Origin: an uncultured Gemmatimonadales bacterium
Lineage (GTDB): Bacteria > Gemmatimonadota > Gemmatimonadetes > Gemmatimonadales > GWC2-71-9
Length of the DNA: 64,000 bases
Direction: 5' to 3'
Assembly: GCA_963695555.1 (NCBI GenBank)
Contig: CAVOGR010000002.1
Location: 486,779-550,778, forward strand
Shown here: in pieces, positions 1 through 8,176 of the stretch
Numbering within the stretch: the stretch's first letter is position 1
Layout: every line of letters starts with the position of its first letter
Notes under the pieces: generated by a model
Seen by the model: only the letters and a program-made list of their open reading frames with translations
Database searches by the model: none
What the model was told of the DNA's origin: nothing
Made by a program: the position numbers and the translations under genes

Positions 1-586
1 CGCCCGCAATCGGCACTGAAAACGTGATCACCAGCCCGAACGACAGATAGAACCAAAAGTCCCACCACCGGATGTTCCAGCCGAACGCCACCGCCGAAGC
101 CGGCTGGAATGAGATCGTCAAGAAGCGGTGTCGCAGGAACCAGTGCACTAGCCCGATCACCGCATACACGGCTGCGAGCCGCAGAATGTGCGGCCACGTG
201 ACCCAGAGCAGGGTGCCGACCAGGATGTCCTTAATGGCCTCGTTGCCCCCCGGCGTCCGGTCGGCGACCAGGATGGCCGCCGCGGACGCCACGACATACA
301 CGATGCCGATGATGGCCTCGTGCGGGACGAGTTCTTTGCCCTTGGTTCGCGTGAGGGCGAAGATCGCGGCTCCGATCGTGGTGAACCCGATTGCGTAAGC
401 AAACGTTGCCGGGGAATCGTGGGGTGACCCGAGAAAGATGGCGACCGTGGTGCCCAACGCCGCCATCTGCGCCAGCGAGAGATCGACGAAAATCACTTCC
501 CGCGCGATCACGTGCAGGCCCAAGTAGCTGTGGATTGCGACGATCACCATACACGCGGCGAGCGGGGGCAGGATCAGTTCGAGCAT
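1..586 (-). CDS. Metal ABC transporter permease (ZnuB/MntB family), runs off the left edge
   Basis: Hand translation from ATG 586: MLELILPPLAACMVIVAIHSYLGLHVIAREVIFVDLSLAQMAALG; hydrophobic; directly downstream of a metal-binding protein gene. Confidence 0.85.
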   Translation of the reverse strand, partial: MLELILPPLAACMVIVAIHSYLGLHVIAREVIFVDLSLAQMAALGTTVAIFLGSPHDSPATFAYAIGFTTIGAAIFALTRTKGKELVPHEAIIGIVYVVASAAAILVADRTPGGNEAIKDILVGTLLWVTWPHILRLAAVYAVIGLVHWFLRHRFLTISFQPASAVAFGWNIRWWDFWFYLSFGLVITFSVPIAG

Positions 587-599
587 CGCGTTGTACCTC

Positions 600-1619
600 T
601 CACTTGAATGCGGCGGCCAGCGCCGTGACCCAGGTGTCCATCAGCTGGAAATACGTCTCCACGCCGGGAGCGCCATGGGTGTTCTCGGGCACGATGACGG
701 CCGTCGCGCCGGTCCGGTCGGCGACCTGCTTGATCTGCGAGCGGCTGAAGTAATTCGACGCGAGCAGCACGGGGATCCTTCGCTCTCGCATCAGACTAAT
801 GACGTCATGCACGTGCCGGGGGGTGGGCGGGATGCCCGGCTTCGGCTCGATGTACTCGACACAGGTGATCCGATACCGCCGGCTAAAGTAGGCCCATTCC
901 TTGTGGTAACAGACTATCTCCTTGTCGCGAAAAATCTCGGCTGTCTTGAGCCAGCCCGTGAGTCGGCTCGACAGGGGCCGTCCGTCGAGCGTCGTGCGAG
1001 TCAGGAATGGCAGCAACTGGTCGTTGCGCAGGAGATCAAGGGCCGTTTGCGGAGTCAGGATGCGCACCACCTCCGCTCCCATGGTCGCCTCGAGGATGCG
1101 CCGCTCGAAGTCGGCCTCGCGTGCTCGGAAGTAGTCGGCATCTGCCGGCGCCACCCGCTCGAGGCCGCGCAGGATGTTCCGCGCAATCAGGATGGCGTTC
1201 AACGGGTCGGTATGAACGTGGGGATTGCCCGCGGCATGGATGTCTCCCTGGGCCCGGCTCACCGATGCGGGGATCTCGAGCAGTTCGATGCCGGCGTTGG
1301 CCGCTACATAGCCGCGACCGCCCTCGGCCACGTTTCGGTTGTTGGCCCGGTCGAGCAGCGCCGGAACCCAGAGTTCGAGGTCCATGCCCGTGGTCACGAA
1401 CAGGTCGGCGTCACGCAACAGCGCCACGAAGCTGGGCTTGGGCTGCACGAAGTGAGGATCCTCATCGCCCTGGGCGATGGAGTTGACCGTGCCGCGGTCA
1501 CCGACGATTTCACGGGCGATAGCGCCATACGTCGTGAGGCTGGTGACCACTTTGACCGGCGCCGGGGCCTGCGGCGGGCTGGAGAGGCCCAGAGCGAGAA
1601 ACAGCATTGAGAGCAGCAT
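600..1619 (-). CDS. Metal ABC transporter substrate-binding protein (ZnuA/TroA family)
   Basis: Signal peptide; VKVVTS, EDPHF, GNPHVH and YHKEW His-ligand motifs. Confidence 0.9.
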   Translation of the reverse strand: MLLSMLFLALGLSSPPQAPAPVKVVTSLTTYGAIAREIVGDRGTVNSIAQGDEDPHFVQPKPSFVALLRDADLFVTTGMDLELWVPALLDRANNRNVAEGGRGYVAANAGIELLEIPASVSRAQGDIHAAGNPHVHTDPLNAILIARNILRGLERVAPADADYFRAREADFERRILEATMGAEVVRILTPQTALDLLRNDQLLPFLTRTTLDGRPLSSRLTGWLKTAEIFRDKEIVCYHKEWAYFSRRYRITCVEYIEPKPGIPPTPRHVHDVISLMRERRIPVLLASNYFSRSQIKQVADRTGATAVIVPENTHGAPGVETYFQLMDTWVTALAAAFK

Positions 1620-1645: not shown

Positions 1646-3034
1646 TCAGTACGTTTCGTGCTTGTGGGGCCCCATCGAGAGCACCACCTGCACGCGGAGT
1701 TGGTTTGACGTTCCTTCGAGGTCGCTCTGGCGGTGTTCCCCCTCCAGCCGCAGATAGACGAACTCGCTCTGCCACCAGGTGACGGTTGGGGTAATCCGCC
1801 ATTCACGGTCGTTGACCCCTCGCGGGGCCTCGACCCAGTCGTACCTCGCCCCAAATACCCACCGGCGGCTGGTCCGCACCTGGAGATCGGCAAACGCACC
1901 GTAGCGGTTGGTGGTCTGGCCCGCTTCGGTTGCGTGCAGTCGATAGCCCTCAGCCCGGAAGGTGATGTCCCGCCGGGTCGCGGCGTCGGGCGGCCGGTAG
2001 GTCAGCCGGAAGTCCAGCCCCGCCAGACGGCTCCGCAGATCGGCATCGCTGTTGTTGCCGCCGACCCCGGTTACGCCAAGCTGCATATAGGTGCTGCGGG
2101 TGAGTTGCCAGAAGCTCTGGAACCTGCCGAGGAGCGAGGGTTGGGTGCCGCCCGCATAGAGTGGATCGCTCTCGGCGGTGGTGCCCTGGAGCCAAACTTC
2201 GTGGGTGCCGCCGGCGATCGACAACGGCAGCGTCGTATAGAGCGACACGCCCACGCCGGCCAAGCCCTCCTCGCCCAGGAACCGCTGATAGACCAGGGGA
2301 TACTGGCTCTCAGGAAGGGCGTGCGCGTGCCAACGATTGAGGTCGCCGAGTTGCTGGCGGATCTTGCCCGCATCGACCCGGATGCGTCCCGGCAGGCCTA
2401 CCCAGTACAGATAGCCTTCTTCGACCCCGATCTCGTCTTCAGAAAAGGTGAGAAAGATCTTGGCGGTCGAATAGGGATCGAGCGCCGATTGAAACGATAC
2501 CTCGACCTCACGGAGCTCCGCGTTGTCGCGCTGCGGACTCTCGTCCCGTGCCGTGAGCAGGACGGTTCCGGTGACGCTGATTTCGGGGTTGAGCACATTC
2601 TGGTTCGGCCGGCCCGCCGTGCCGGAAGGTGCCTTCGGTTGCGTAGAATCACGCTCTGACGCCGCGCCTGCAGCCGCAGCCGCAGCGGCACGGATGGCGG
2701 CCAATTCATCGACCACCGTGTCGGAAGGCGTCCCGCTGGTCTGGGGTGCTGCACAGCGCTCGATGGTGAGGCGATACACCCGGTCTTGGAGCCGGGTGAT
2801 GGCAGTCGCCAACGAGTCCACCGCGGGGTCTCCGGTCGGTGTTCGCTGAAGGGAGGCAATCGGTCGCGGGGGGCAAAGCCCGGTGCCGAGCGAATCCAAC
2901 CTTGCTTCGAGTGCTGTGATGCGCTGGTGAAGCGAATCAACCGCGGGCCGCAGCTCGTCCTGGGCGGCCGCATTCGAAACGGGCCACAGGAAGAGCGCGC
3001 CGACCAGCGCGGCAAGGAGGTGTGTTCGTCGCAT
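1646..3034 (-). CDS. Outer-membrane beta-barrel protein associated with metal uptake
   Basis: Signal peptide, coiled-coil N-terminus, LNPEISV...LREVEVSFQSALDPY, LNRWHAH, alternating beta strands, C-terminal GPHKHETY. Confidence 0.75.
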   Translation of the reverse strand: MRRTHLLAALVGALFLWPVSNAAAQDELRPAVDSLHQRITALEARLDSLGTGLCPPRPIASLQRTPTGDPAVDSLATAITRLQDRVYRLTIERCAAPQTSGTPSDTVVDELAAIRAAAAAAAGAASERDSTQPKAPSGTAGRPNQNVLNPEISVTGTVLLTARDESPQRDNAELREVEVSFQSALDPYSTAKIFLTFSEDEIGVEEGYLYWVGLPGRIRVDAGKIRQQLGDLNRWHAHALPESQYPLVYQRFLGEEGLAGVGVSLYTTLPLSIAGGTHEVWLQGTTAESDPLYAGGTQPSLLGRFQSFWQLTRSTYMQLGVTGVGGNNSDADLRSRLAGLDFRLTYRPPDAATRRDITFRAEGYRLHATEAGQTTNRYGAFADLQVRTSRRWVFGARYDWVEAPRGVNDREWRITPTVTWWQSEFVYLRLEGEHRQSDLEGTSNQLRVQVVLSMGPHKHETY

Positions 3035-3133
3035 TCACGCTCCACGAAAGACCAAGGTTCCTCTCGGGACCCGGGACGCTGGGCATCGGCGGTGCTGTGG
3101 AAGCCGTTGTGTGGCGCCCCGGTAGGGGGTTTC

Positions 3134-3490
3134 TCAGGCGTGGCGGAGAGGAGGAGCGCGTGGTCGAGCGTGAGTGAAGTAGTGGGAGGTGTAGAGCGGC
3201 GCGTCCGGCTGGTCGACCTCGACGATGGCCGGCACTTGGGCACCTCGAAACCCCGCTGGGTCGAGGGGGGCGTACCGTAGCGGCGCCACGAGTGCGCCCA
3301 GGGCGCAGGCCTCGGCGTGGCACGCTGTGCTGTCGAGCGCTTCGACGTGTACTTGTCGCGACACGTCGACGGCGTCGCCCCCGTGGTACAGCGCCGCATC
3401 GACCACCGTCCGCCCAACCGTGGCAAACAGGAATGCCAGGCCGAGGACGAGCGACCGCAGCGCGACACCCCGGGAACGAGTCATGGGCAT
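3134..3490 (-). CDS. Leader ORF with signal/TM segment, His/Cys cluster and C-terminal RAPP motif (DUF2946/CruR-like)
   Basis: MPMTRSRGVALRSLVLGLAFLFATVG...HVEALDSTACHAEAC...HARPRAPPLRHA*; 99 nt upstream of the metal-uptake operon. Confidence 0.7.
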   Translation of the reverse strand: MPMTRSRGVALRSLVLGLAFLFATVGRTVVDAALYHGGDAVDVSRQVHVEALDSTACHAEACALGALVAPLRYAPLDPAGFRGAQVPAIVEVDQPDAPLYTSHYFTHARPRAPPLRHA

Positions 3491-3576
3491 GAAGTATAGG
3501 GCCAGGCCATGGCGCTGGAAACGAGGGCGACCACGGCCTGACCGGTTGCAGGGACCATACCGAACTAGTATATTCA

Positions 3577-3588
3577 ATGTATATACAT
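3577..3588. promoter_or_regulatory. Palindrome ATGTATATACAT, probable MazE operator
   Basis: Perfect 12-bp inverted repeat in an AT-rich patch 10 nt upstream of mazE. Confidence 0.6.
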
Positions 3589-3598
3589 CCCGGACACC

Positions 3599-3841
3599 AT
3601 GATGCGAACGCGTATTTCAAAGTGGGGCAATAGCTTAGGAGTCAGGATTCCCAAGGCTTTTGCCGCCGAGGCCGGCCTCGATGACGGGACGCCGGTGGAC
3701 ATTTCTGTGTCCGGTGGCCGGATCGTGGTGACAGCCCTTGGCCGGGAGTACCAGCTCGAAGAACTGGTGGACGGCATCACGGCGGAGAATCGCCACACCG
3801 AAACGGATTGGGGACATCCGGCGGGGGCGGAGGTATGGTAG
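3599..3841 (+). CDS. mazE: AbrB/MazE family antitoxin
   Basis: ISKWGNSLGVRIPK...LEELVDGIT.ENRH.E.DWG.P.G.EVW. Confidence 0.92.
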   Translation: MMRTRISKWGNSLGVRIPKAFAAEAGLDDGTPVDISVSGGRIVVTALGREYQLEELVDGITAENRHTETDWGHPAGAEVW

Positions 3842-4158
3842 TACCCGACCGAGGTGACCTGGTGTGGATTTCCATCGCATCGCGCTCGGACGATGGCCGC
3901 TCCAGCCGGCGCCCAGCGCTGGTCGTATCACCGGCCCGGTACAACGAGCGGGCCGGGCTCGCGCTCATGTGCGCCGTGAGTGGTGCAGCCACAGGGTATC
4001 CCTTCGAGGTTCCCCTGCCCCAGGGCCTGCCTGTGAGCGGGGTCGTCCTGGCCGATCATCTGCGCAGCGCCGACTGGAAAGCCCGTGACGCTGCCATTGC
4101 CTGCCGCGTGCCGGCGGAGGTGGTGGCGGACGTCCTGGCGAAGTTGAAACCACTGTAA
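3835..4158 (+). CDS. mazF: PemK/MazF family toxin (divergent active-site loops)
   Basis: VPDRGDLVW...RRPALVVSP..YN...GYPFEV...GVVLADHLRSADWKAR; overlaps the mazE stop. Confidence 0.88.
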   Translation: MVVPDRGDLVWISIASRSDDGRSSRRPALVVSPARYNERAGLALMCAVSGAATGYPFEVPLPQGLPVSGVVLADHLRSADWKARDAAIACRVPAEVVADVLAKLKPL

Positions 4159-4204: not shown

Positions 4205-4744
4205 ATGGCCCAACCGATTCCCCTTTCGCGAGCCCACAAGGTTGCGGGACGCTTCACGGTCAACGGTGAGCAGCATGACATCACCTTCTCGTCCCACAAG
4301 ACCCTGCTCGAGGTCTTGCGCGAAGACCTCGGCCTGACCGGCACGAAGCACGGATGCGAGCTGGGAGAGTGCGGTGCCTGCGCGGTGCTGGTGGACGGCA
4401 TGCCGCTTTTGTCCTGTCTGGCCCTGGCTGCCGCGTACCAAGATCGCAACATCACAACCGTTGAAGGGATGGCCGACGGGCCCCTGCTTGACCCACTCCA
4501 GGAAGCGTTTGTCGAATTGGGCGCGGCCCAATGCGGCTATTGCACGCCGGGCGTCTTGCTCACGGCACGGGCGCTCTTGAACGAGAACCCACACCCCACC
4601 AGGCACGAGATCAAGGACGCGCTGGCGGGAAACCTCTGCCGCTGCACCGGCTACATCAAGATCTACGAGGCCGTGGAACTGGCTGCCCGTCGCTTGCGTG
4701 GTGAAGAGGCGGAGCCTCTGGAGGAGTCGCTCCATGGCTACTGA
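4205..4744 (+). CDS. Xanthine-dehydrogenase-family 2Fe-2S subunit (HcrC/CoxS-like)
   Basis: GTKHGCELGECGAC, QCGYCTPG, GNLCRCTGY. Confidence 0.95.
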   Translation: MAQPIPLSRAHKVAGRFTVNGEQHDITFSSHKTLLEVLREDLGLTGTKHGCELGECGACAVLVDGMPLLSCLALAAAYQDRNITTVEGMADGPLLDPLQEAFVELGAAQCGYCTPGVLLTARALLNENPHPTRHEIKDALAGNLCRCTGYIKIYEAVELAARRLRGEEAEPLEESLHGY

Positions 4745-7172
4745 CACGGGGCGGAGCCCCTACTCGGTAATCGGCACCCCACGAGCCAAGGTCGACGCGG
4801 CGGCCAAGTGTACCGGCGAGGCCATCTTTGCAGACGACCTGGTCCTGCCCCGGATGCTGAGTTGTAAGATGCTCAGGAGTCCGCATCCCCACGCGCGGAT
4901 CGTGCGGATCGACACCAGGACGGCGCTGGCGGTGGATGGCGTCCACGCGGTCATTACCGGCGCGGATGTTCCCATTCCGTTTGGAATTTTGCCGGTGAGC
5001 CAAGACGAACACGCGTTGGCGCCCGACCATGTGCGCTTCATCGGCGACGCGGTGGCGGCGGTGGCCGCGCGGGACGAGGACACGGCGACCGCGGCGCTCG
5101 ATCTCATCGAGGTCGAGTACGAAATCCTCCCGCCGATCGGTTCCGTTGCCCAGGCAGCCACGACCCCCGAACCGAAGCTCCACGATTACGCCGATCAGGG
5201 GAACCTCCATAAACTGATTCATCTCGAGTTCGGCGACGTGGAGGCGGGCCTCGGGCGTGCCGATATGGTGCAGGACGACCTCTTCTTTTACGAGGGAAAC
5301 ACCCATCTCCCGATCGAGCAGCACGCCGCGCTCGCGCGATACGACAAGAACGGCCGCCTCACCCTCTGGTCCAGCACCCAGACCCCGCACTACGTCCATC
5401 GCGCCCTGTCCAAGGTGCTGGAACTCCCGCCGAGCCGGATCCGGGTGATTGCCACCCCGAATGGCGGAGGGTTTGGTGGGAAGAGCGATCCGTTTCCGCA
5501 TGAGATTGTGGTGTCGAAACTTGCGATCTTGACTGGCCGCCCAGTCAAGATCTGCCTCACCCGCGAAGAGGTGTTCTACTGTCACCGCGGCCGCCACCCG
5601 GTGCTCATGCGGGTCAGGACCGGCGTGACCACGGACGGCGCCATCACCGCCATGGATTTCGAGTCCTACTTGGACGGCGGCGCCTACGGATCGTACGGCG
5701 TGGCCAGCGCCTATTACACCGGTGCGCTACAAACGGTCACCTACCAGGTGCCTGCCTACCGCTTTCGCGGCGCCAGGGCATTCACCAACAAGGCCCCGTG
5801 CGGCCCCAAGCGCGGGCACGGCACGCCGCAGCCCCGCTTCGCGGTCGAGGTCACGCTGGACAAGATCGCCGAGCGCCTCGAGCTCGATCCCGCCGAGATG
5901 CGCCTCCGACACCTCCAGCCGGCAAACTCGATTACCGCCAACTACCTGAAGATCGGTACCATGGGACTTGGCCAGTGCATCGAGCGCGTCGCTGCTGGCT
6001 CAGACTGGAACACCCGGTTTCGGAAGCTTCCGTATGGTCACGGGCTTGGGCTCGCGTGTTCTTCCTACATCACCGGCGCCGGCCTCCCCATCTACTGGAA
6101 CGCGATGCCGCATTCCGGGGTGCAACTCAAGTGCGACCGGGGAGGCGGAGTCACCGTCTTCTGTGGATCCACCGACATCGGCCAGGGCTCGGACTCGGTC
6201 CTCGCCTACATCGTGGCCGAGGTGCTCGGGCTCGATCCCATGAAGATCGCGGTGGTCACCGCCGATACCGATCTCACTCCGGTCGACCTCGGCAGCTACT
6301 CGTCGCGGGTAACGCTCATGATGGGCCAGGCCGCCATTCAGGCTGCCGAACGCGTGAGGGAGCTCATTGCCCGTGCCGTGGCCACCAAGCTCGACCTGCC
6401 GATGGAACAACTCGTGTTCACAGGAGAGCGGGTGTGCGACCGCGCGCGGCCAGAAGAAGGCATGAGCTTCGCCGAAGCGGTGGTGCTCGCGGAGTCGGCG
6501 ACAGGCACCATCGGTGCTGTGGGCAGCTACACGCCGCCCCGTTCACCGGGGCGCTATCGCGGCTCAGGGGTTGGGCCGTCACCGGCCTACAGCTACAGCG
6601 CGTGTGTTGCCGAAGTCCAGGTCGATCCGGATACCGGCATCGTTCAGGTTCCCAAGGTTTGGATCGCCCACGACGTGGGGCAGGCCATCAACCCGGCACT
6701 GGTGATGGGCCAGATCGAGGGCGGCGTCTACATGGGTCTGGGTGAGGCGCTCATGGAGGAGATGTCGTATCGCGAGAATCGAAACCTGGTGCACAAGTGG
6801 CCGTCGATGCTCGAATACAAGAGCCCCACGACGCTCGAGATGTGCGACGTCATCACCTACCTGGTCGGCGAGCCGGATCCGAACGGACCGTTCGGCGCGA
6901 AGGAGGCGGGGCAGGGTCCGCTCCTGCCGGTAATGCCGGCCGTGGCCAACGCGATATACGACGCGGTCGGGGTGCGGATCGATGAGGTGCCCATGAGTCC
7001 GCCCAAGGTGCTGAAGGCAATTCAGGCAAAGGCCAAGGGCAAGGAGCCGCGCTACGGTCCCACCGAAACGCCGGAGATCGCTTGGCCGCCCGTCACGGCG
7101 GTGCCCACTCCTGCCGAAGGCGGAGATGGGCGTGCCGCGGAACCTGGTCGTGCGCCGGCAGGAGGTCGCTGA
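4734..7172 (+). CDS. Xanthine-dehydrogenase-family molybdopterin-binding subunit (HcrA-like)
   Basis: LRSPHPHARI, GGGFGGK, DGGAY, RGHGTPQ, DIGQGS, GSYSSRVT, GQIEGG, GPFGAKEAGQGP. Confidence 0.93.
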   Translation: MATDTGRSPYSVIGTPRAKVDAAAKCTGEAIFADDLVLPRMLSCKMLRSPHPHARIVRIDTRTALAVDGVHAVITGADVPIPFGILPVSQDEHALAPDHVRFIGDAVAAVAARDEDTATAALDLIEVEYEILPPIGSVAQAATTPEPKLHDYADQGNLHKLIHLEFGDVEAGLGRADMVQDDLFFYEGNTHLPIEQHAALARYDKNGRLTLWSSTQTPHYVHRALSKVLELPPSRIRVIATPNGGGFGGKSDPFPHEIVVSKLAILTGRPVKICLTREEVFYCHRGRHPVLMRVRTGVTTDGAITAMDFESYLDGGAYGSYGVASAYYTGALQTVTYQVPAYRFRGARAFTNKAPCGPKRGHGTPQPRFAVEVTLDKIAERLELDPAEMRLRHLQPANSITANYLKIGTMGLGQCIERVAAGSDWNTRFRKLPYGHGLGLACSSYITGAGLPIYWNAMPHSGVQLKCDRGGGVTVFCGSTDIGQGSDSVLAYIVAEVLGLDPMKIAVVTADTDLTPVDLGSYSSRVTLMMGQAAIQAAERVRELIARAVATKLDLPMEQLVFTGERVCDRARPEEGMSFAEAVVLAESATGTIGAVGSYTPPRSPGRYRGSGVGPSPAYSYSACVAEVQVDPDTGIVQVPKVWIAHDVGQAINPALVMGQIEGGVYMGLGEALMEEMSYRENRNLVHKWPSMLEYKSPTTLEMCDVITYLVGEPDPNGPFGAKEAGQGPLLPVMPAVANAIYDAVGVRIDEVPMSPPKVLKAIQAKAKGKEPRYGPTETPEIAWPPVTAVPTPAEGGDGRAAEPGRAPAGGR

Positions 7173-8176
7173 TGCTCCGCCTCTCGCCCTGCACCGCGAG
7201 CTTCCCAGCAACGATTGATGAAGCTCTAGCCGAGAAGGCCACCCATGGCCAGGCGGCGTCCTACGTTGCGGGCGGCACCGATCTCTATCCCAACATGAAG
7301 CGACGGGTTCAGACTCCGGCGCATGTGATCGATATCCGGGGCATTCCCGAGCTGCGGCAACTGGAGACGTTGTCGGATGGGCGGCTCGCGATCGGCTCGT
7401 GCATTACGCTGACGGAGCTGATCCGACATCCCGCCGTGAGAAAAGGATGGCCCGTGGTTTCCCATGCGGCGGCACTCATCTCGACACCCCTGCTGCAGAA
7501 CATGGGCACGATAGGCGGGAACCTGCTGCTCGACACCCGCTGCAACTACTACGACCAAGGGTATGAGTGGCGGAAGGCCATCGACTTCTGCATGAAGAAG
7601 GATGGCGACATCTGCTGGGTCGCGCCTTCGTCGCCGCGGTGCTGGGCGGTGCAATCGAGCGACCTGGTCCCGGTGATGGTGGCCCTGGACGCGAGCATGC
7701 GGTTTGTGGGACCGGACGGCGCCCGGACCTTGCGCGCCCGGGATCTATACCTGAACGATGGCATCGACTTCCTGGCGAAACGACCTGATGAGCTCTTGAC
7801 GACCGTCGAGCTCCCGCCGCTCGCCGGTGCCCGGGCGTCGTATGAGAAACTCCGCCGCCGCGGCTCGTTCGACTTTCCGGTCCTGGGCGTTGCGGCCTGG
7901 GCTCGCATGAACGGCGGCACCACGGTGTCGGAGGCTCGCATCGTGATCGGCGCGGTGGGTTCGGCCCCGCTGGTGAGCGACGAAGCTGCGCAGTCGTTGG
8001 TAGGGAAGGCGCTGTCGGACGAGGCTATCGATGAAGCGGCCCGCCTCGCCGCCCGGCACGCCAAGCCGCTCGACAACACCGATTTCACCATCGGCTGGCG
8101 GAAGGACATGGTGCCGGTCTACCTGCGGCGGGCCTTGGAGAGTTTGCGGCAGGACCCACGCGACATGGAAGGGTAA
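7172..8176 (+). CDS. Xanthine-dehydrogenase-family FAD subunit with extra 4Fe-4S insertion (HcrB-like)
   Basis: AGGTDL, NMGTIGGNL, insertion RCNYYDQ..EWRKAIDFCMKKDGDICWVAPSSPRC; TGATG coupling to the upstream gene. Confidence 0.92.
   Translation: MLRLSPCTASFPATIDEALAEKATHGQAASYVAGGTDLYPNMKRRVQTPAHVIDIRGIPELRQLETLSDGRLAIGSCITLTELIRHPAVRKGWPVVSHAAALISTPLLQNMGTIGGNLLLDTRCNYYDQGYEWRKAIDFCMKKDGDICWVAPSSPRCWAVQSSDLVPVMVALDASMRFVGPDGARTLRARDLYLNDGIDFLAKRPDELLTTVELPPLAGARASYEKLRRRGSFDFPVLGVAAWARMNGGTTVSEARIVIGAVGSAPLVSDEAAQSLVGKALSDEAIDEAARLAARHAKPLDNTDFTIGWRKDMVPVYLRRALESLRQDPRDMEG

Follow-up and report, generated by a model that had tools for sequence, protein, structure and literature searches.

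A divergent RAPP leader peptide of Gemmatimonadota, predicted to sense metal on the ribosome, heads a porin and ZnuA-type transport operon

We analyzed a window of 64,000 nucleotides (nt) from an uncultured Gemmatimonadales bacterium (contig CAVOGR010000002.1 of assembly GCA_963695555.1), in which a small open reading frame (ORF) on the minus strand, ending close to the residues Arg-Ala-Pro-Pro (RAPP), lies ahead of genes for a porin-like outer-membrane protein, a ZnuA-type metal-binding protein and an ABC-3 permease. Comparison of its sequence family with known arrest peptides indicates that the ORF very probably encodes a divergent, Gemmatimonadota-specific RAPP arrest leader akin to the copper-sensing leaders CruR and CutF. 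On balance we lean toward the fuller proposition that the leader is a cis-acting sensor, whose nascent chain stalls its own ribosome at RAPP and thereby unmasks the Shine-Dalgarno (SD) sequence of the porin gene. The class of DUF2946/CruR/CutF-like RAPP leaders is already published; what is new is a clade missed by Pfam, which has lost the second Cys and keeps Asp, His and Glu as conserved residues. A preliminary description of the locus had proposed an arrest leader related to the DUF2946 leaders CruR and CutF, with a ligand set other than CxxC, ahead of a barrel gene and a Zn/Mn-type ABC operon, and this general interpretation was right: the kinship is borne out by profile comparison and by the RAPP of the whole family, the ligand set by the residues C62-A-L-G65, and the operon by the porin model, a PF01297 match and the ABC-3 permease. 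The mechanism attached to it is partly supported, in that the family supports it but on a different helix, and it is unsecured at the window locus. The leader and its parts are as follows.

3134..3484, minus strand: leader ORF of 116 amino acids (aa), or 118 aa from the in-frame ATG at 3490; the stop codon TGA (3136..3134) is included.
3383..3472, minus strand: Arg-rich N-terminus together with a hydrophobic helix (residues 5-34, counted in the 116-aa form), predicted to act in export or as a membrane anchor.
3305..3400, minus strand: candidate metal-ligand cluster D31, H36, H48, E50, C57, H58, E60 and C62 (118-aa numbering).
3149..3160, minus strand: RAPP codons CGC GCU CCU CCU, where the ribosome is predicted to stall with the first Pro codon occupying the P site and the second the A site.

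The ORF, its hydrophobic N-terminal helix, its His/Glu/Cys cluster and the RAPP four residues before the stop codon were all found where the preliminary description had placed them. Arg residues at the N-terminus are followed by a hydrophobic stretch of ~17 residues with no evident cleavage site, as judged by reading the sequence together with an AlphaFold2 model. In this model residues 5-34 form a helix with predicted local distance difference test (pLDDT) values of 84-95, and the remainder is low-confidence coil, so that no fold is seen past the first helix and hence no ligand geometry. Read directly, the cluster runs H48-V-E50, six residues, C57-H58-x3-C62; it had been given before as HVE-x5-CH-x3-C, with the residues correct and the first spacer one residue too short. 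The linker from the cluster to the C-terminus is unremarkable, and the protein ends in P-R-A-P-P-L-R-H-A, with RAPP at residues 111-114 of 118 and L-R-H-A between it and the TGA. The assignment of the two Pro codons to the P and A sites is taken from the toeprints of ApdA/ApdP and CruR in PMC12992588 (here and below, statements on PMC12992588, PMC9426467, PMC9973294 and PMC4176598 refer to the parts of these papers available to us). The ORF and its RAPP clearly exceed chance, because R[AG]PP is scarce in the genome (13 occurrences in 958 long ORFs) and is kept near the C-terminus in nearly all homologous frames.

Three near-identical proteins were returned by a word-index homology search, and an exhaustive search of representative sequences gave 14 representatives at E<=1e-3. 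Thirteen of these were fetched, of which 12 end in RAPP and one in RSPP; the fourteenth, a protein of 1760 aa, was left out. A profile of 14 sequences (A2) matches 106 of 401 genomes sampled from Gemmatimonadota, and the matches are concentrated in the window's own family (84/166 genomes), with 2-4 copies per genome being frequent. Homologues were collected by running hmmsearch on every six-frame, stop-to-stop frame of the fetched loci, so RAPP was not a selection rule; the yield was 138 rows, corresponding to 137 distinct frames. R[AG]PP lies inside the last 16 residues in 131 of the 137. The other six comprise one RSPP frame, one cut by a contig end, one with RAPP and a 23-residue tail, two that are partial or spurious, and one without the motif. 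Classified by their first downstream gene, 126 loci comprise 71 with a TonB-dependent receptor, 34 with a member of the window's porin family plus one with a fragment at a contig end, 19 with a TolC-like OEP protein and one with a C-terminal ZnuA-domain protein, the three main classes being BLAST clusters with Pfam run on 13 representatives.

Conservation within the 126 leaders is concentrated in the cluster, at the C-terminal motif and in the distance between them. D31 is kept in 120/126, H36 in 107/126, H48 in 93/126, E50 in 87/126, H58 in 119/126 and C62 in 123/126; position 60 is Asp or Glu in 79/126. The preliminary description had proposed conservation of RAPP and of the Cys/His cluster as a check, and its outcome is that RAPP, D31, H36, H58 and C62 are widely kept, but C57 is present in just 47/126. 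The tail after RAPP is 1-6 residues long in 125/126 leaders. Between the invariant Cys and the Arg of RAPP there are 48 residues in 83/126 leaders and 46-49 in 123/126, and this linker has a fixed length without conserved sequence. A spacer of this kind, joining ligand cluster to arrest motif, is expected of a device that acts while the chain is still on the ribosome.

The window protein alone would not have been recognized by Pfam: it has no PF11162 match at E<=1 and no Pfam hit at all, the PF11162 gathering score of 23.7 bits not being reached, and the best match in a PF11162 search of the window's whole genome was an unrelated frame (E 0.8). Across the family PF11162 is nevertheless the recurrent weak Pfam match, found at E<=1 in 39/131 leaders, always aligned to the model end, with a single leader reaching the gathering score (23.9 vs 23.7 bits). 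An hhalign comparison of the core family (A2) with 13 CxLC-bearing relatives (A5), whose members include the PF11162 matches, gave a probability of 98% and E 3e-13, the 70 aligned columns being N-terminal and free of RAPP. Distant relatives in other families of this class show the CXXC of DUF2946 in the form H-I-E-S...C...H-x-x-D-C-x-L-C. This CXXC is not kept in the window protein, which reads C62-A-L-G65, and the +3 position after the invariant Cys is Gly in 46/126 leaders and Cys in just 16/126. Among the 30 nearest clusters of the ESM Atlas, 29 are without a common Pfam family and one has PF11162 in 11% of its members; the three clusters displayed are mostly Gemmatimonadota.

Much of the framework into which this leader falls has been established elsewhere. 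RAPP already counts among the motifs that define DUF2946/CruR (PMC9426467), DUF2946 members head operons for TonB receptors and copper genes, and small secretory upstream ORFs (uORFs) ending in RAPP or RGPP, ahead of TonB receptors and metal genes, were catalogued in many phyla in 2025 (PMC12992588). The preliminary description had understated this prior knowledge, and the novelty is accordingly less than it implied. In vitro, CruR is arrested at RAPP when codons three and four of the motif occupy the P and A sites (PMC12992588); its Cys motif stands 45 residues from RAPP, a spacing held within 1-2 residues, and it works via Rho, the Rho-utilization (rut) site being a C>G bubble within cruR (PMC9426467). 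Rhodobacter CutF, another member of this family, undergoes degradation upon export (PMC9973294) and is the proposed opener of a stem-loop by which the next gene's ribosome-binding site is masked (PMC9973294; bioRxiv 10.1101/2025.02.05.636593).

The resemblance to CruR (Bordetella pertussis Bp2923, the type member of PF11162) is extensive. Both lead a metal-transport operon; the N-terminal export signal of CruR is predicted here as well, and the N-terminal domains are homologous via intermediates in hhalign. A Cys metal motif stands at a fixed distance from RAPP (45 residues in CruR, 48 here), the tail after RAPP is short (three and four residues, respectively), a long intergenic region follows (162 nt in cruR, 99 nt here), and TonB-dependent receptors are the commonest downstream gene in both families. 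The differences are that CruR has CXXC, whereas here the second Cys is replaced (C-A-L-G) and conserved Asp, His and Glu are added; that CruR controls a TonB receptor and PepSY protein, whereas the target here is a porin with a ZnuA-type ABC system; that CruR acts through Rho, whereas SD complementarity is seen here; and that CruR is proteobacterial and the present family is from Gemmatimonadota.

CutF of Rhodobacter capsulatus is likewise an exported nascent-chain sensor with a Pro-rich C-terminal stall, as predicted for the leader, and its stall is proposed to open an RNA structure shielding the next SD, as we propose here. The neighbors of the CutF-like set are dominated by OEP/RND efflux and TonB-like genes, as in the window family, and clusters with His-containing ligand sets have been reported among them. 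CutF differs in having CxxxC and a PPP-type motif that stalls weakly alone, in place of RAPP, and in having its anti-SD within an intergenic stem-loop, whereas here the anti-SD lies mostly in or just after the Pro-Pro codons. Three small supplements of PMC9973294 contain no match for Gemmatimonad, ZnuA or PF01297, and the gene lists of that paper may still include the window family. The arrest peptides that monitor Sec and YidC (ApdA, ApdP, ApcA and SecM, with RAPP, RAPG and RAGP) share with the leader the C-terminal R-A-P-P core, an N-terminal localization signal and control of a downstream gene, and arrest with codons three and four of the motif in the P and A sites, respectively, is predicted likewise here; they differ in monitoring the export machinery ahead of sec/yidC genes, whereas the window leader has a ligand cluster and lies ahead of genes for a porin and a metal ABC system. 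The RAPP/RGPP uORFs surveyed in GTDB (EMBO J 2025, PMC12992588) are also small secretory proteins with the motif near the C-terminus, from many Gram-negative phyla. That survey sorts them by downstream-gene annotation; the text available to us names no ZnuA-type ABC/porin class and has zero occurrences of Gemmatimonadota, and it holds no analysis of anti-SD words or codon choice, the word 'codon' occurring three times there, with the passages shown concerning P/A-site assignment. Finally, Caulobacter CC2720 (DUF2946), ahead of czrCBA, and Cupriavidus CzcI are arranged as in the OEP class of our family (Zn/Cd/Co RND efflux). They differ from it in that the part of PMC4176598 at hand gives no mechanism for CC2720, and in that CzcI is CutF-like but lacks the Pro motif (PMC9973294).

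The 5' end of the leader provides a further family trait. At the window locus a promoter-like site precedes the second Met codon directly:

3493..3521, minus strand: promoter-like TTTCCA-17 nt-TATACT; the -10 element ends 8 nt ahead of the ATG at 3484.

One such site was found, against 0.0 expected in shuffles. In the family, a TANNNT hexamer ends 6-9 nt ahead of the predicted start in 65/124 leaders, with each of the other offsets accounting for four or fewer, and an SD-like word lies upstream of the start in just 14/124. Judged from these sequences the leader mRNA is probably leaderless, and a leaderless start would make the leader ORF 116 aa long. The ATG at 3484 is therefore the likelier start than the ATG at 3490, and close homologues also start at this second Met. 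No intrinsic terminator was found beyond chance (one weak site, 0.5 expected), and a known riboswitch was ruled out, no Rfam family matching within 2800..3800 at E<=1. The intergenic region is crossed by one contig from an estuary RNA library (2904..3189), and a contig from a second study spans 3020..3213; RNA libraries can hold DNA and contigs cannot show a single transcript, its starts, ends or levels, so these are a weak hint of co-transcription. Directly past the leader stop codon, the C-run at 3130 is one base shorter in contigs from two RNA-library runs of related strains.

Support for an RNA switch at the stall site comes from the family as a whole. The first Pro codon of RAPP is CCU in 57/126 leaders and CCA in 32/126, each against a background of 7-9% in these loci; ordinary genes of the window genome encode the first Pro of a Pro-Pro pair by CCU in 9%, CCA in 16% and CCG in 64%, and CCU amounts to 8-9% whether PP or APP is considered. 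The Ala of RAPP is encoded by GCU in 44/126 leaders, compared with 6-7% in the same loci and 16% in ordinary APP. CCC is avoided at the first Pro (8/126 vs a background of 35%), which, like the conservation of RAPP and the ruler, is indirect evidence for arrest, but CCC is also low, at 11%, in ordinary PP pairs. In 84/119 loci the stretch from the Arg codon to the stop codon contains the complement of the SD core of that locus, whereas synonymous resampling yields 24.5 +/- 4.3 with a maximum of 37 in 300 runs. This excess decays upstream, from 77 vs 45.7 to 42 vs 31.4 and then 24 vs 31.2.

Folding and exchange of sequences between loci point to the same place. When 110 loci were folded with a partition function, pairing of the SD was found to peak on the Pro-Pro codons, where a single 5-nt bin holds 0.23 of the pairing mass, rising to 0.32 in the TonB-receptor class; the porin class has a second peak 10-14 nt downstream (0.18), and all remaining bins hold 0.00-0.10. 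In a subgroup without CUCC in the RAPP codons, CCCUCCUC stands directly after the stop codon, opposite a GAGGAGG SD. A test for such compensation gave no significant result: an SD-core complement just past the stop codon was found in 9/35 leaders that lack one between RAPP and stop, vs 10/84 (Fisher p 0.10). For the swap control, the stall zone, defined as -15..+18 nt around the first Pro codon, was paired computationally with its own SD region (-16.05 kcal/mol) and with those of unrelated loci (-13.76 kcal/mol); the own SD was the better partner in 63/89 sequence clusters (Wilcoxon p 2e-6), and two upstream zones of the same length showed no preference for it (p 0.66 and 0.50). This result is hard to explain by composition or a Rho site alone. 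Masking a ribosome footprint raised the family-mean unpaired probability of the SD from 0.125 to 0.207, compared with 0.120 for a control mask. That the RAPP codons themselves can pair with the SD had been a lesser remark of the preliminary description, and it is this feature that recurs across the family.

At the window locus itself the pairing is less definite. The features concerned are these.

3032..3046, minus strand: SD region (GGAG at 3043..3040) and porin start codon ATG (3034..3032).
3159..3173, minus strand: UCACGCUCgacCACG, the anti-SD candidate of the preliminary description, whose 8-bp part appears in one minimum free energy (MFE) fold.
3071..3122, minus strand: intergenic hairpin CCGGGGCGC...GCGUCCCGG, present in the MFE folds of the window locus and of the homologue in G004, another genome of the genus.
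3125..3214, minus strand: stretch rich in C and poor in G at the leader's 3' end, which either supplies anti-SD words or is a possible rut site.

The preliminary description had rested its switch on a bulged 12-bp helix, in which UCACGCUCgacCACG (3173..3159) is complementary to CGUGGAGCGUGA (3046..3035) over 8 + 4 bp with a 3-nt bulge; in letters, UCACGCUC-gac-CACG faces CGUG-GAGCGUGA. The complementarity is present, but it is no better than composition allows, and its register is lost in the four other genomes of the genus. RNAduplex gives -18.1 kcal/mol for the last 67 nt of the leader against the SD region, a value equalled by 2.2% of 2000 random 67-nt windows taken from the 64-kb window and by 15.3% of 1000 dinucleotide shuffles of the leader segment; what is unusual is thus the composition of the leader 3' end and not the particular helix. 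The MFE fold of 3200..3010 on the minus strand uses the 8-bp part but not the CACG/CGUG part (z = -1.71). Within the RAPP codons, CGCGCUCC (3160..3153) can pair with GGAGCGUG (3043..3036) over 8 bp including one G-U, and the bulged helix is one among several alternatives. Throughout the genus the predicted partner of the SD is a CUCC-type tract from the 3' part of the leader, and the position of this tract shifts: it precedes the Arg codon by ~10-12 nt in G004, by 25-28 nt in G002 and by 28-31 nt in G001, and falls on the Pro codons themselves in G003. In the intergenic hairpin of G004, a U-to-C change converts a G-U pair to G-C, the sequences being too few for a covariation test.

From these observations we propose the following sequence of events. 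The ribosome would start at the 5' end of a leaderless mRNA, and the N-terminal helix would direct the nascent chain to the membrane. The Asp/His/Glu/Cys cluster would be outside the ribosome once the Pro-Pro codons had reached the P and A sites. A pause there, covering the RAPP codons and ~15 nt on either side, would keep the pyrimidine-rich anti-SD words from the GGAG of the porin gene, and the porin-ZnuA-permease operon would become translatable. Upon release of the stall the zone would pair again with the SD and translation would drop, the untranslated RNA perhaps being exposed to Rho as well. Metal bound to the cluster would alter the force that pulls on the nascent chain and thereby determine how long the stall lasts. 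By analogy with CruR, the more likely sign for an uptake operon is that metal would shorten the stall and expression would fall. Judging by the ligand set and by the ZnuA and CzcA partners, the metal may be divalent (Zn, Co, Ni, Cd or Mn) rather than Cu(I), a single Cys with His, Glu and Asp resembling a Zn/Co/Ni/Mn site more than a Cu(I) site. More tentatively, and with the odds in our view against the combination, the Pro-Pro codons, recoded to CCU-CC against the strong codon bias of the genome, may themselves be the anti-SD in leaderless leaders, with one sensor, its ligands and 48-residue ruler unchanged, wired to uptake (TonB receptor, porin-ZnuA) and CzcCBA-type efflux operons in the same genomes and the downstream RNA architecture, not the peptide, setting the sign of the response. 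If the Pro-Pro codons are the anti-SD, occupancy of two codons directly gates the next gene.

Several results weigh against unmasking of the SD by a stalled ribosome. At the window locus, where folding models do not support the unmasking proposed in the preliminary description, just 0.17 of the SD pairing mass lies within the footprint zone, masking one or two ribosome footprints lowers the unpaired probability of the SD from 0.21 to 0.09 or 0.08, the own-versus-swapped percentile is an unremarkable 0.29, and the SD partner changes with the length of RNA folded. The family-wide gain in SD accessibility on masking, for its part, is small in absolute terms. A-ending codons are enriched in RAPP as well (CGA 34, GCA 26 and CCA 32 of 126), and an anti-SD function leaves these unexplained. 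In the OEP class the SD pairs with the footprint zone no more than in shuffles (0.21 vs 0.27), though this class passed the swap test. Leaders that share their ligands and ruler stand before uptake-type as well as heavy-metal efflux operons, a single response sign cannot serve both, and none of the residue columns 27-65 separates the two types of leader. Three points of method bear on the counts: downstream start codons were picked with help of the SD score, the A2 profile holds the four RAPP columns and so favors RAPP-bearing frames, and related genomes are non-independent, so that the p-values are overstated. In two efflux-class loci (L043 and L052) the SD is enclosed in a local hairpin (CCCUCCC-loop-GGGAGGG) before the OEP gene, far from the stall site, which suggests an RNA architecture unlike that of the uptake classes.

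The nearest competing account is Rho-dependent attenuation as in Bordetella CruR, in which a stalled ribosome covers a C-rich rut site, its release leads to termination in the 99-nt intergenic region, and SD pairing is secondary or absent; this is possible, but we judge it the less probable course. The base composition speaks for it, and counts against the SD reading: the last 60 nt of the 126 leaders have a rut-like C content of 0.47-0.49 with G at 0.23, third-position G falls from ~0.36 to 0.12-0.25 from codon -9 onward, and successive 30-nt windows at the window locus have C/G counts of 15/7 and then, for the last two, 14/4 and 17/4. Two genes in the genome encode a Rho RNA-binding domain (G000:C1:345880-346101 and G000:C5:170390-170602; 122 and 82 bits), on an mRNA that is probably leaderless the first ribosome would be closely coupled to the polymerase, the intrinsic terminator that would offer another means of termination was not found beyond chance, and the rut site within cruR provides the precedent. 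A rut site, however, requires no match to a downstream SD, whereas the stall zone matches its own SD and upstream zones of the same composition do not, and the SD-core complement is enriched through synonymous codons precisely at the stall site. The intergenic region is also shorter (99 nt, class medians 77-104) than the 162 nt of cruR. Because of the swap control we place SD unmasking ahead of Rho attenuation, but not by much; the two share a logic, in that a stalled ribosome means that the operon is on, and they may act together.

An account without cis regulation, which we regard as improbable, would make the product a small, stable metal-binding protein of the membrane or periplasm, for instance a metallochaperone or an accessory subunit of the porin or ABC system, with a Pro-rich end that is structural or serves in sorting. 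The conserved Asp/His/Glu/Cys cluster beside a membrane helix and the constant association with envelope metal transporters are what such a protein would have, and the CutF-like CzcI of Cupriavidus, free of the Pro motif, is discussed as a regulator protein (PMC9973294). A motif that is rare in ordinary proteins of the genome and yet is held 1-6 residues from the end, in 131 of 137 frames, fits this account poorly, as do the 46-49-residue ruler over an unconserved linker and the lack of an AlphaFold2 fold past the first helix; codon bias and SD complementarity point to selection at the RNA level, and CutF, as noted, is degraded on export. That the ORF arose by chance, with complementarity produced by GC-rich composition, has a negligible probability. 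The shuffles that equal the 12-bp helix and the fold z of -1.71 are compatible with it as far as that helix is concerned, but for the ORF it is refuted by homologues in 106/401 genomes, invariant residues and the RAPP end.

The operon controlled in this proposal consists of three genes on the strand of the leader, the first separated from it by the 99-nt gap.

1646..3034, minus strand: outer-membrane porin-like protein of 462 aa, with a signal peptide, N-terminal helices and a ~16-strand beta-barrel.
600..1619, minus strand: ZnuA/TroA-type periplasmic metal-binding protein of 339 aa (PF01297, E 1.1e-47).
2..586, minus strand: ABC-3 family permease, 284 aa in the genome, continuing beyond the window.

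The 462-aa porin-like protein matches no Pfam or NCBIfam family. Its AlphaFold2 model (pLDDT 79.6) is matched by Foldseek to porins both general and specific, namely OprO/OprP, chitoporin, OmpT, PhoE and DcaP at E 1e-8 to 1e-11, with template-modeling (TM) scores of 0.38-0.64. Its family, of ~460 aa, has two nearly invariant Cys (C54 and C94 in alignment A4) and a conserved terminal MGPHKHETY. The porin gene is followed by the ZnuA-like gene in the six loci examined (the window, L021, L022, L032, L034 and L035), and the porin may be the outer-membrane entry for the ZnuA-type importer. In the last five of these the next two genes resemble the ZnuA and permease genes of the window by sequence, Pfam having been run on the window proteins alone. 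The best NCBIfam scores of the metal-binding protein, AztC (zinc) with 88 bits and MntC (manganese) with 59 bits, are both far under the cut-offs, so that no metal is assigned to it. No ATPase gene follows the permease, whose neighbor on that side encodes an M1 peptidase in convergent orientation. Some 4 kb further along, on the operon's strand, lies the gene of a heavy-metal P-type ATPase of 839 aa with an HMA domain (G000:C2, L151). In the single OEP-class operon that was scanned (L031), the RND pump is of the CusA/CzcA type (940 bits vs a cut-off of 701).

The proposed target is a ZnuA-type importer with its own porin, and the clade extends the principle of CruR and CutF, in which a nascent exported peptide reports metal by stalling, to another phylum and to sequences outside Pfam recognition. 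It poses the question of how one sensor design drives import and efflux operons alike, and its ~130 sequences amount to a natural experiment for separating arrest motif, ruler and anti-SD. Proteins of ~115 aa now annotated as hypothetical can be named, and may be used to predict post-transcriptional metal regulation in Gemmatimonadota. Leader-headed operons occur in tandem in many genomes, 2-4 per genome and 3.7-6 kb apart (among others G044:C5, G038:C6, G019:C108 and G093:C3; L023, L028, L101 and L086), and these clusters mix TonB-receptor, porin and OEP/CzcCBA operon types.

The region upstream of the leader is occupied by divergent genes on the plus strand.

3599-4158, plus strand: MazE/MazF pair (AbrB-type antitoxin and PemK-type toxin), adjoining the leader.
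3568-3586, minus strand: GTATATACATTGAATATAC, 13 nt from the start of mazE.
4205-8176, plus strand: molybdenum hydroxylase genes of the xanthine/CO dehydrogenase type.

A mazEF pair also stands beside homologous leader operons in several genera (L004, L025, L032, L034, L035, L041 and L101; tblastn 61-97%), so that a toxin-antitoxin module and a metal-transport operon form a conserved neighborhood. We considered GTATATACATTGAATATAC as a metal-regulator box and rejected it, since it always travels with mazE, with small changes, and is probably the mazEF promoter or operator. The molybdenum hydroxylase genes, identified from their translations only, comprise ORFs resembling the small [2Fe-2S], large and FAD-binding subunits.

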